A DNA stretch of 64,000 bases from Escherichia coli (GCF_048403405.1 NZ_CP183129.1), one strand, 5' to 3'; positions 60,155 to 61,706 are shown, counted from the first letter of the stretch. Notes: generated by a model from the letters alone, not told the origin. Numbers and translations are program-made.

Positions 60155-60164
60155 TAGTCACGCT

Positions 60165-60242
60165 GGCGAAGTTCAGTAGGCCGGAGAAGGCGTTTACGCC
60201 GCATCCGGCAATTTTGCACCGATTGCCTGATGCGACGCGGGC
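60165..60242. repeat. REP palindromic units (BIME) downstream of rluA; the distal unit is interrupted by the IS
   Basis: aggccggagaaggcgtttacgccgcatccggc and gcctgatgcgacgcgggc. Confidence 0.75.
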
Positions 60243-60274
60243 TGAACTGAACCCCAAAACCTGGACAGTTTCAG

Positions 60275-61153
60275 TTAACCGGCTTTTTGATGCTCAGTCC
60301 GGTATTCTACCGGACTGAGTCCCCCAAGACTGAGTTTTATTCTTTTTTGATTCCAGTAAGTTATGTATTCGTTAACGGCATTTTCCAGCTCTTCTACACT
60401 TCTGTAGTCCCGGCGATAGTACATTTCTTCTTTCAGGTGACCAAAGAAATTCTCCATTACCGCATTATCAAGGCAGTTGCCCTTGCGCGACATGCTCTGC
60501 ACTAACCCTTTGTCTGCCAGGGCAGACTGATAACTTTTTATCCGGTAATGCCACCCTTGATCACTGTGGAGCAGCGGTTTTTCTCCTTCTGCAAGGCTTT
60601 CCAGCCCCTTATTTAACATGCGCTTCACCAGCTCCTCTGTAGGCCTGCAGGCAGTTTCCCACGCCACGATTTCCCCGTTAAACAAATCAAGTATCGGGGA
60701 CAGGTACAGTTTTTGTCCGCCAGCCCTGAATTCGGTGATATCTGTCACCCATTTCTCACAGGGAGCTTCCGCTTTGAACTGTCGCTGAAGGATATTTTCT
60801 GCAGCGAGTCCCATATTTCCCCGGTAAGACCGGTATTTCTTCAGGCGCACAGGAGACTTCAGGCCGAGCTGTTGCATCAGTTTTCGCACCGTTTTGCCAC
60901 TGAACTTAAGACCTCTTTTCTGAAGCTCACAATGGATCCGCCGGTACCCATAACATCCCCGGTGTTCATGGAAGATGGAGGCTATGAGCTGTTTCACATC
61001 AGCATACTTGTCCTTAGCCTTCTGCAGTGACAGCTGGTAGTACAGCGTGCTTCTGGCCAGCCCTGCAGCCTTTAACAGGTCAGACTGGCAGTGTCCGCAC
61101 CTCAGGCTCCGGATGACTTTCGTTTTTTCTCCAGCTCCTGGCGCTTTTTTTCC
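60275..61153 (-). CDS. IS3-family transposase OrfB catalytic (DDE) domain, expressed as OrfAB by programmed -1 frameshift; upstream boundary approximate
   Basis: Track ORF 60275..60997 (240 aa) has a DDE-type integrase C-terminus; the -1 frame is open upstream to the slippery site by manual translation (KKAPGAGEKTKVIRSLR...ARSTLYYQLSLQ...). Confidence 0.8.
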   Translation of the reverse strand, partial: GKKAPGAGEKTKVIRSLRCGHCQSDLLKAAGLARSTLYYQLSLQKAKDKYADVKQLIASIFHEHRGCYGYRRIHCELQKRGLKFSGKTVRKLMQQLGLKSPVRLKKYRSYRGNMGLAAENILQRQFKAEAPCEKWVTDITEFRAGGQKLYLSPILDLFNGEIVAWETACRPTEELVKRMLNKGLESLAEGEKPLLHSDQGWHYRIKSYQSALADKGLVQSMSRKGNCLDNAVMENFFGHLKEEMYYRRDYRSVEELENAVNEYITYWNQKRIKLSLGGLSPVEYRTEHQKAG

Positions 61154-61632
61154 AGGAGATGCTCCTGCATGGCTTTCAGATATGCATTTTCTGCGCGAAG
61201 ATAACGCAGCTCATTCTTCATCTCTTCCGGCGTCATGTTTGCTTCGTTTTCATGGGTATCATCAGAACGGGTCATGCTTTTCTCCTTCCTGCGCCTGATA
61301 AAGGCCTCATTACCAGATTTGCGGTAGCCTTTTATCCAGTTTTTAACCGTGTTGTGGCTGGGAATGTTAAACCGGGCAGCTACCCGGGGTAGAGACTCAG
61401 AATGCCCGAGAGCATAAAGAACCACGCAAAGTTTATCTTCAGGAGAATAGCTACGCCTGTGTCTGCAATCCAGTGCCCGAGGACCGTGAAGAAGAAAAAG
61501 ATTAATCCAGTGTGAGAGGCTGGTGTGAGAAAGTTGAAAGAGTTTTGCCGTAGAAATGATGCCTGCATGACCGGCCAGGTAATGATTTACAGCGGCAATT
61601 TTTACTTCAAATGAATGTTTCATAAACTGCAC
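61102..61632 (-). CDS. IS3-family transposase OrfA (HTH / leucine-zipper protein, 176 aa)
   Basis: ORF track; ends just after slippery A-AAA-AAG (plus strand T7 run 61145..61151). Confidence 0.85.
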   Translation of the reverse strand: MQFMKHSFEVKIAAVNHYLAGHAGIISTAKLFQLSHTSLSHWINLFLLHGPRALDCRHRRSYSPEDKLCVVLYALGHSESLPRVAARFNIPSHNTVKNWIKGYRKSGNEAFIRRRKEKSMTRSDDTHENEANMTPEEMKNELRYLRAENAYLKAMQEHLLEKKRQELEKKRKSSGA

Positions 61633-61706
61633 CTTCAGATGTCAGATTATGTCCAACATTTGGGGTGCAGTTCAGGCCGCGTCTTATCAGGCCTATAGTT
61701 TGAAAC

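Follow-up and report, generated by a model that had tools for sequence, protein, structure and literature searches.

The window—the whole 64,000-nucleotide stretch of Escherichia coli DNA analysed here—almost certainly holds a complete, apparently functional copy of IS1397, an IS3-family insertion sequence of IS150-like architecture, lodged in the apical loop of a z2-type REP (palindromic unit) that belongs to a small BIME in the spacer separating rluA and djlA, two convergent genes. From aroP to lptD, the window consists of ordinary core chromosome of E. coli, with polB, rapA, the leu, ara, and thi genes, and the dcw cluster among its contents. Within it, the copy occupies positions 60243..61674 (minus strand; 1432 bp). 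It is an already known element whose anatomy shows no departure from IS1397, and its value lies mainly in annotation; it illustrates in textbook fashion how an insertion sequence can target REP loops.

To identify the element, we performed a megablast search of 5426 complete E. coli genomes. Copies annotated as IS1397 and 100% identical to the window copy over 1432 bp were present in six genomes, and copies with 98–99.7% identity in hundreds more. RefSeq labels the features under these matches "IS3-like element IS1397 family transposase", with the note 'programmed frameshift', and 1432 bp is also the length of the intact IS1397 copies that we sampled at other loci. In ISfinder usage, two copies represent the same IS when their identity exceeds about 90% at the nucleotide level or 95% at the amino-acid level. 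The window copy shares 98–100% of its nucleotides with IS1397 copies named by RefSeq/PGAP (the comparison being with these rather than with the ISfinder reference), and its OrfAB differs at 0–7 of 449 residues from that of 12 sampled intact copies. The name IS1397 rests on the RefSeq annotation and on behavior that matches the secondary literature. Judged by its sequence, the element is IS1397 proper and not merely IS1397-like, as the earlier note had put it.

The assignment to the IS3 family, likewise proposed before, agrees with the protein profiles: OrfAB scored 388 bits against the NCBIfam IS3 transposase model NF033516 (cutoff 160), covering profile positions 1–369 of 369, and Pfam returned HTH_28 twice, HTH_21, and rve/rve_2/rve_3. 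Further family traits are present as well, namely two consecutive, partly overlapping frames with an A AAA AAG −1 frameshift site; a DDE (rve/integrase-core) transposase that fits the family model from end to end; and imperfect TG...CA terminal inverted repeats accompanied by a 3–4 bp target duplication. The IS1397 transposase reportedly steers insertion to the loops of palindromic units; later papers (PMC1525189; PMC3333891) cite Clement 1999 and Wilde 2001 and 2003 for this element, with Bachellier 1997 alongside them. IS1397 has been described as an IS3-family element with REP-specific insertion in E. coli, its specificity being set by the transposase (PMC1525189; PMC3184786). Compared with the known IS1397—with which it shares 98–100% nucleotide identity, the 1432-bp length, the A AAA AAG −1 frameshift, the palindromic-unit loop, and the 3–4 bp duplication—the window copy differs in nothing of substance, its particulars being an I9/R56/H445 protein variant and the rarity of its rluA/djlA site.

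It is very improbable that the window holds a different IS3-family element, such as IS150, ISKpn1, or an unnamed relative resembling IS1397 in size and target. The name comes from RefSeq annotation, and the architecture is shared with IS150; however, identity to RefSeq IS1397 reaches 98–100% at the nucleotide level, including in lineages with reported IS1397 (the CFT073/Nissle group), whereas IS150 of E. coli K-12 (insJ/insK) shows no meaningful nucleotide similarity to the window copy. At the protein level, InsK and the window OrfB are 51% identical over 277 residues, with the DDE residues aligned, while InsJ—also of 173 aa and with two helix-turn-helix domains—shares only 26% identity with OrfA. 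The likeness extends to the heptamer A AAA AAG, at element position 525 in the window IS1397 and 530 in IS150, and to the termini: the IS150 IRL, TGTACTGCACCC..TGTTGGAC, resembles that of the window copy, and the IS150 ends TGNACTGCACCC...GTTGGAC are similar. The hairpin downstream of the heptamer has a z-score of −4.53 in IS150 as against −2.25 in the window IS1397. We had considered the two OrfA helix-turn-helix domains as a possible novelty linked to REP targeting and dropped the idea, the two-domain, 173-aa layout of InsJ being identical.

IS150 is not known to specialize in REP loops. One of the two IS150 copies in CFT073 adjoins a REP (Tobes and Pareja, PMC1525189). Other REP-targeting elements include ISKpn1 (Klebsiella pneumoniae) and ISPsy8, both of the IS3 family, and IS621 and ISPpu9 of the IS110 family (PMC1525189; PMC3184786); IS621, whose transposase belongs to a different family, goes in next to the palindrome and not into its loop (PMC3184786). 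All four are different elements from different hosts, set apart here by their descriptions.

The ends of the element are well defined. It starts at 60243 with TGAACTGAACCCCAAAACCTGGACA, and its other end is TGAACTGCACCCCAAATGTTGGACA in reverse complement, giving the form TG...CA. The left inverted repeat (IRL; TGAACTGCACCCCAAATGTTGGACA) lies upstream of orfA at 61650..61674 and the right one (IRR) downstream of orfB at 60243..60267 (both minus strand, as the element is read), and the 25-bp repeats match at 21 of 25 positions. The 64-kb window contains a 16-nt end motif at these two places and nowhere else (0.07 occurrences expected by chance). Directly outside the element stand two copies of GGC (60240..60242 and 61675..61677), of which an unoccupied site has one: in strain NRZ14408, the site reads gcgacgcgGGCcgcgtc with a single GGC, within a spacer of the form ...gcctgatgcgacgcgGGCcgcgtcttatcaggcc..., and matches at 99.8% across the joined flanks. 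A 600-nt query composed of the two flanks and a single GGC matched in one piece in 3183 of the 5426 genomes (best match, 99.8%). The unoccupied NRZ14408 site therefore settles the element boundaries and the 3-bp duplication, and places the REP halves outside the element. The length, the coordinates, the imperfect 25-bp TG...CA repeats, and the GGC direct repeat given in the earlier note were all borne out; absence of the inverted repeats and the duplication, which that note had named as grounds for giving up its reading, did not apply, both being present on alignment.

These observations also bear on the true extent of the mobile unit. The terminal repeat can be extended to 43 nt (60225–60267 and 61650–61692) at 84% complementarity, the REP halves being complementary themselves, so that one might picture a unit larger than 1432 bp with REP-like termini of its own. 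We consider this hardly credible, as in the unoccupied allele the REP is whole, with one GGC and without the element, the flanks of other copies are unrelated (units of y or z2 type, oriented either way, and in one case a coding sequence), and homology among copies always ends at TGAACTG...CAGTTCA. On the strength of the empty site and the variable flanks, we ruled out the REP halves as part of the element and retain the 1432-bp IS1397.

The element sits between rluA (59495..60154, plus strand; located from the annotation of identical loci), whose 3′ end faces it, and djlA (61707..62522, minus strand; 816 bp in RefSeq), which is immediately upstream of the transposase genes and co-directional with them. 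The left half of the split palindromic unit, gcctgatgcgacgcg followed by GGC, spans 60225..60242 (plus strand) and is z2-like, as recognized from repeat, motif, and fold; the right half, GGC followed by cgcgtcttatcaggc, spans 61675..61692 (plus strand) and was recognized from repeat and fold. When the two flanks were rejoined with one GGC, they folded into a hairpin of −22.6 kcal/mol with an apical loop of exactly GGC. Hence the earlier placement of the element between two halves of one REP palindromic unit stands, with the empty allele seen directly: the insertion splits one REP hairpin and interrupts no gene.

A second, intact palindromic unit, y-like and inverted, lies next to the split one at 60177..60212 (minus strand) and carries a match to the REP head motif at 60197–60209, also on the minus strand. 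The labels y and z2 follow what we take to be the consensus sequences of these units. The head motif, GCCKGATGCGRCG, occurs six times in the window against 0.76 expected, and two of the six fall in the rluA–djlA spacer. The spacer thus holds the inverted y-like unit (about 60177–60212) and the split z2-like unit with a short linker between them—a BIME-2-like pair, the published definition of the BIME-2 layout matching a y-like/z2-like pair with a linker (PMC3333891).

Elsewhere in the window, a BIME between yacG and mutT matched the Rfam family naRNA4, a REP-derived nucleoid-associated RNA, at 8569–8646 (minus) and 8554–8602. Other Rfam matches were expected ones: SgrS (41377–41603), the leu leader (36469–36618), a TPP riboswitch (44380–44479), and STnc40 (9162–9231). 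A 'PssrA' match lies at the ftsA/ftsZ junction (14878–14967).

To place the window site among natural insertions, we sampled 22 occupied sites from other genomes, corresponding to 20 distinct events, rebuilt the unoccupied site of each, and folded it; scoring by folding the rejoined site was used as the duplication is not always centered in the loop. In 19 of 20 independent insertions, the target folded as a palindromic-unit hairpin (−19 to −25 kcal/mol), and the duplication lay in the apical loop or no more than one base away from it. Together with the window site, these 19 insertions uphold the REP-loop specificity that the earlier note had found to match IS1397. Both y-like and z2-like units were used, in either orientation. 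The duplications comprised 3 bp (GGC, GTA, AGC, GCA, GTT, GCC) or 4 bp (TAAC, GCCA, GTTC, TGGC, ACTA), apart from one apparent 5-bp repeat, and at two sites one copy of the duplication was mutated. A fixed polarity relative to the palindromic unit was considered and rejected, both orientations occurring in a ratio of roughly 9 to 6 in the first sample.

The one exception lies inside allA (ureidoglycolate lyase) of strain CE0007a (element at 1201–2632 of the fetched locus), where a CCG duplication is present and a REP hairpin is not. This copy represents a natural palindromic-unit-independent insertion that inactivates the gene, and it fits, as far as the title tells, a paper named 'Palindromic unit-independent transposition of IS1397 in Yersinia pestis'. 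As side observations from the sampled loci, IS1397 was found just downstream of the 5S rRNA gene in several genomes, and the transposase was co-directional with the upstream gene in all three informative tandem contexts (yiaW/aldB, ycfJ/ndh, kgtP/rrf), a sample too small to speak of a bias.

The coding capacity of the element appears intact. OrfA is most likely translated from the ATG at 61623 (orfA, 61102..61623, minus strand; 173 aa), since the RefSeq CDS of an identical copy starts there and the codon lies 6 nt downstream of AAGGTG; its stop codon is at 61104..61102 on the minus strand. The earlier note had been right about the presence of orfA and had given it 176 aa, the length of the mechanical ORF that opens at GTG 61632 and runs to the same stop. 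Two HTH_28 domains, at residues 8–57 and 64–113, account for the two helix-turn-helix domains of OrfA. A slippery heptamer, A AAA AAG, is found in the zero frame of orfA at 61144..61150 (minus strand, read from 61150 to 61144), and the −1 frame is open from there to 60275 (orfB frame, 60275..61144, minus strand), so that joining the frames at the heptamer gives an OrfAB of 449 aa. The predicted catalytic residues D295 (WVTDIT), D355 (HSDQGW), and E391 (VMENFF) align with those of IS150 InsK, and the Pfam rve domain covers residues 286–384 (5e-21). The earlier claim that orfB can be reached through this heptamer to yield an intact OrfAB therefore agrees with the frames and the DDE triad alike.

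Directly downstream of the heptamer, and enclosing the orfA stop codon, folding predicted a hairpin (61103..61140, minus strand; read from 61140 to 61103) of −15.9 kcal/mol. In the 51-nt stretch considered, it has a z-score of −2.25 and is equalled by 3 of 200 shuffles; the wider 126-nt context around the heptamer folded no better than its shuffles (z = −0.67). With statistical support this modest, the hairpin is a candidate frameshift stimulator only. Scanning 60100–61800, we found no sigma-70-like promoter in the element and one terminator-like site, at chance level.

By analogy with the IS3 family, a −1 ribosomal frameshift would yield the OrfAB transposase, while OrfA alone would be made when frameshifting does not occur. 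OrfAB would then drive copy-out transposition, in which an attack of one end on the other produces a figure-eight and thereafter a circle with abutted ends, and the circle would be pasted into a new target—here, a REP loop—by a staggered cut of 3–4 bp. The models behind this scheme are IS911, IS3, IS150, and IS2. Weak resident promoters are typical of IS3-family elements, which form a junction promoter in the circle; the finding of no internal promoter is compatible with this model and proves nothing. Because djlA lies immediately upstream and is co-directional, read-through from it could, speculatively, contribute to transposase expression.

Several features suggest that the variant in the window has moved. 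Its OrfAB carries I9, R56, and H445 in place of the L, K, and Y of most sampled copies. The same 1432-bp sequence, with 0 of 1432 differences, recurs at yiaW/aldB (GN02461, 4621) and at dgcE/alkA (3059), and GN02461 holds both the rluA/djlA and the yiaW/aldB copies. Presence of an identical variant at three loci means that it transposed after gaining I9, R56, and H445, and this IS1397 variant has apparently moved recently. The rluA/djlA insertion event itself is not very recent, as all six genomes of the lineage carry it. The earlier suggestion of a potentially active element is supported, indirectly, by the intact frames and the identical copies at other loci. Being intact and apparently recently moved, the variant could mediate rearrangements between the 4–5 IS1397 copies in this genome.

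That the window copy is instead a dead relic—structurally complete, with transposition lost, for instance, through I9, R56, or H445 or through a lost promoter—appears improbable to us. Such a reading could draw on the three amino-acid differences from the commonest protein variant, on the promoter scan, on the fixation of the insertion in 6 of 6 lineage genomes, and on the decayed copies that exist elsewhere (Nissle, 1427 bp; AVS0096/FEX669, 1431 bp). It has to contend, however, with an element in which neither reading frame, neither end, the heptamer, nor the DDE triad is damaged, and with an identical 1432-bp sequence bearing the same three substitutions at three loci; resident promoters are, moreover, typically weak in this family, which relies on a promoter formed at the circle junction. 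We therefore continue to regard the copy as an apparently functional IS1397.

The earlier note had also taken the element to mark the chromosome as non-K-12. The chromosome is indeed not K-12, as judged from its rluA–djlA spacer and from the remnant that K-12 carries in place of an intact element. IS1397 is nevertheless a weak strain marker, since full-length copies are present in 1707 of 5426 complete E. coli genomes (~31%), nearly all of them chromosomal and at up to 40 places per genome. In the K-12 strain MG1655, only element positions 1–65 were matched (95.4% identity), and this 65-bp relic is common to BL21(DE3), MC1061, and roughly 1,780 other genomes without full IS1397. In MG1655 (601–665 of the fetched NZ_CP097882.1 locus), the relic is the orfB-side end, follows half of a y-like unit (aggccggataaggcgttta|TGAACTGAC...), and breaks off next to yhhI, a transposase gene of ISEc1 type. 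This arrangement points to an early insertion of IS1397 into a REP loop, with truncation at a later time. The K-12 djlA–rluA spacer lacks a BIME altogether: in place of the 118-bp BIME, it holds a 1.5-kb segment with yabP and yabQ, as seen within the compared region NC_000913.3 57000–60400, homology between K-12 and the window stopping right at the rluA stop codon and resuming near the djlA stop.

Across E. coli, then, the rluA–djlA spacer is polymorphic, consisting of a bare BIME, a BIME with IS1397 at one of four positions, or the K-12 yabP–yabQ segment. Occupation by IS1397 is rare (10 of 5426 complete genomes) and stems from at least four separate events. The first is that of the window, with its GGC duplication. 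In the second (IAI39 and BH100), the insertion is in the window-type loop, shifted by one base, with a GCC duplication; the third (KE50) has a TGGC duplication and lies in an additional unit; and the fourth (SK0189) is in the loop of the y-like unit adjoining rluA. Relative to the window copy, that of IAI39 has 11 differences and that of BH100 has 23, yet these two have a common insertion point (element at 802–2233 of the fetched loci), implying either gene conversion among copies within a genome or two insertions at one nucleotide. In KE50 (about 780–815 and 2247–2290 of the fetched locus) and SK0189, a further, complete palindromic unit appears to interrupt the z2-like unit itself, in a nested arrangement, gtctgatgc tgctc [gccggatgcgacgctggcgcgtcttatccggcctac] cgcgtcttatcaggcc, that amounts to a REP within a REP.

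The exact window junction is a clean strain-lineage marker, as only 6 of 5426 complete genomes have the same one. Only six genomes (4621, MS 69-1, TUM1226, OX030728, GN02461, and TUM14771) match the 24 kb left of the element at 99.9% identity or more (next best, 98.6%), and the window-type insertion is present in all six. This insertion is therefore older than the divergence within that small lineage.

Three population-level points are raised here tentatively, as possibilities that we do not favor: that the rluA–djlA BIME is a recurrent target, with at least four independent hits spread over three palindromic units, including a pair in one loop that are offset by a single base; that IS1397, as the widely shared 65-bp relic suggests, is ancient in E. 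coli and has been lost from many lineages, K-12 not being truly naive; and that co-directionality with the upstream gene could mean dependence on read-through. None of them changes what the element is. As to decayed IS1397 copies, those of Nissle 1917 (located between nlpE and yaeF) and of AVS0096/FEX669 are flagged 'frameshifted' and are still flanked by REP halves.
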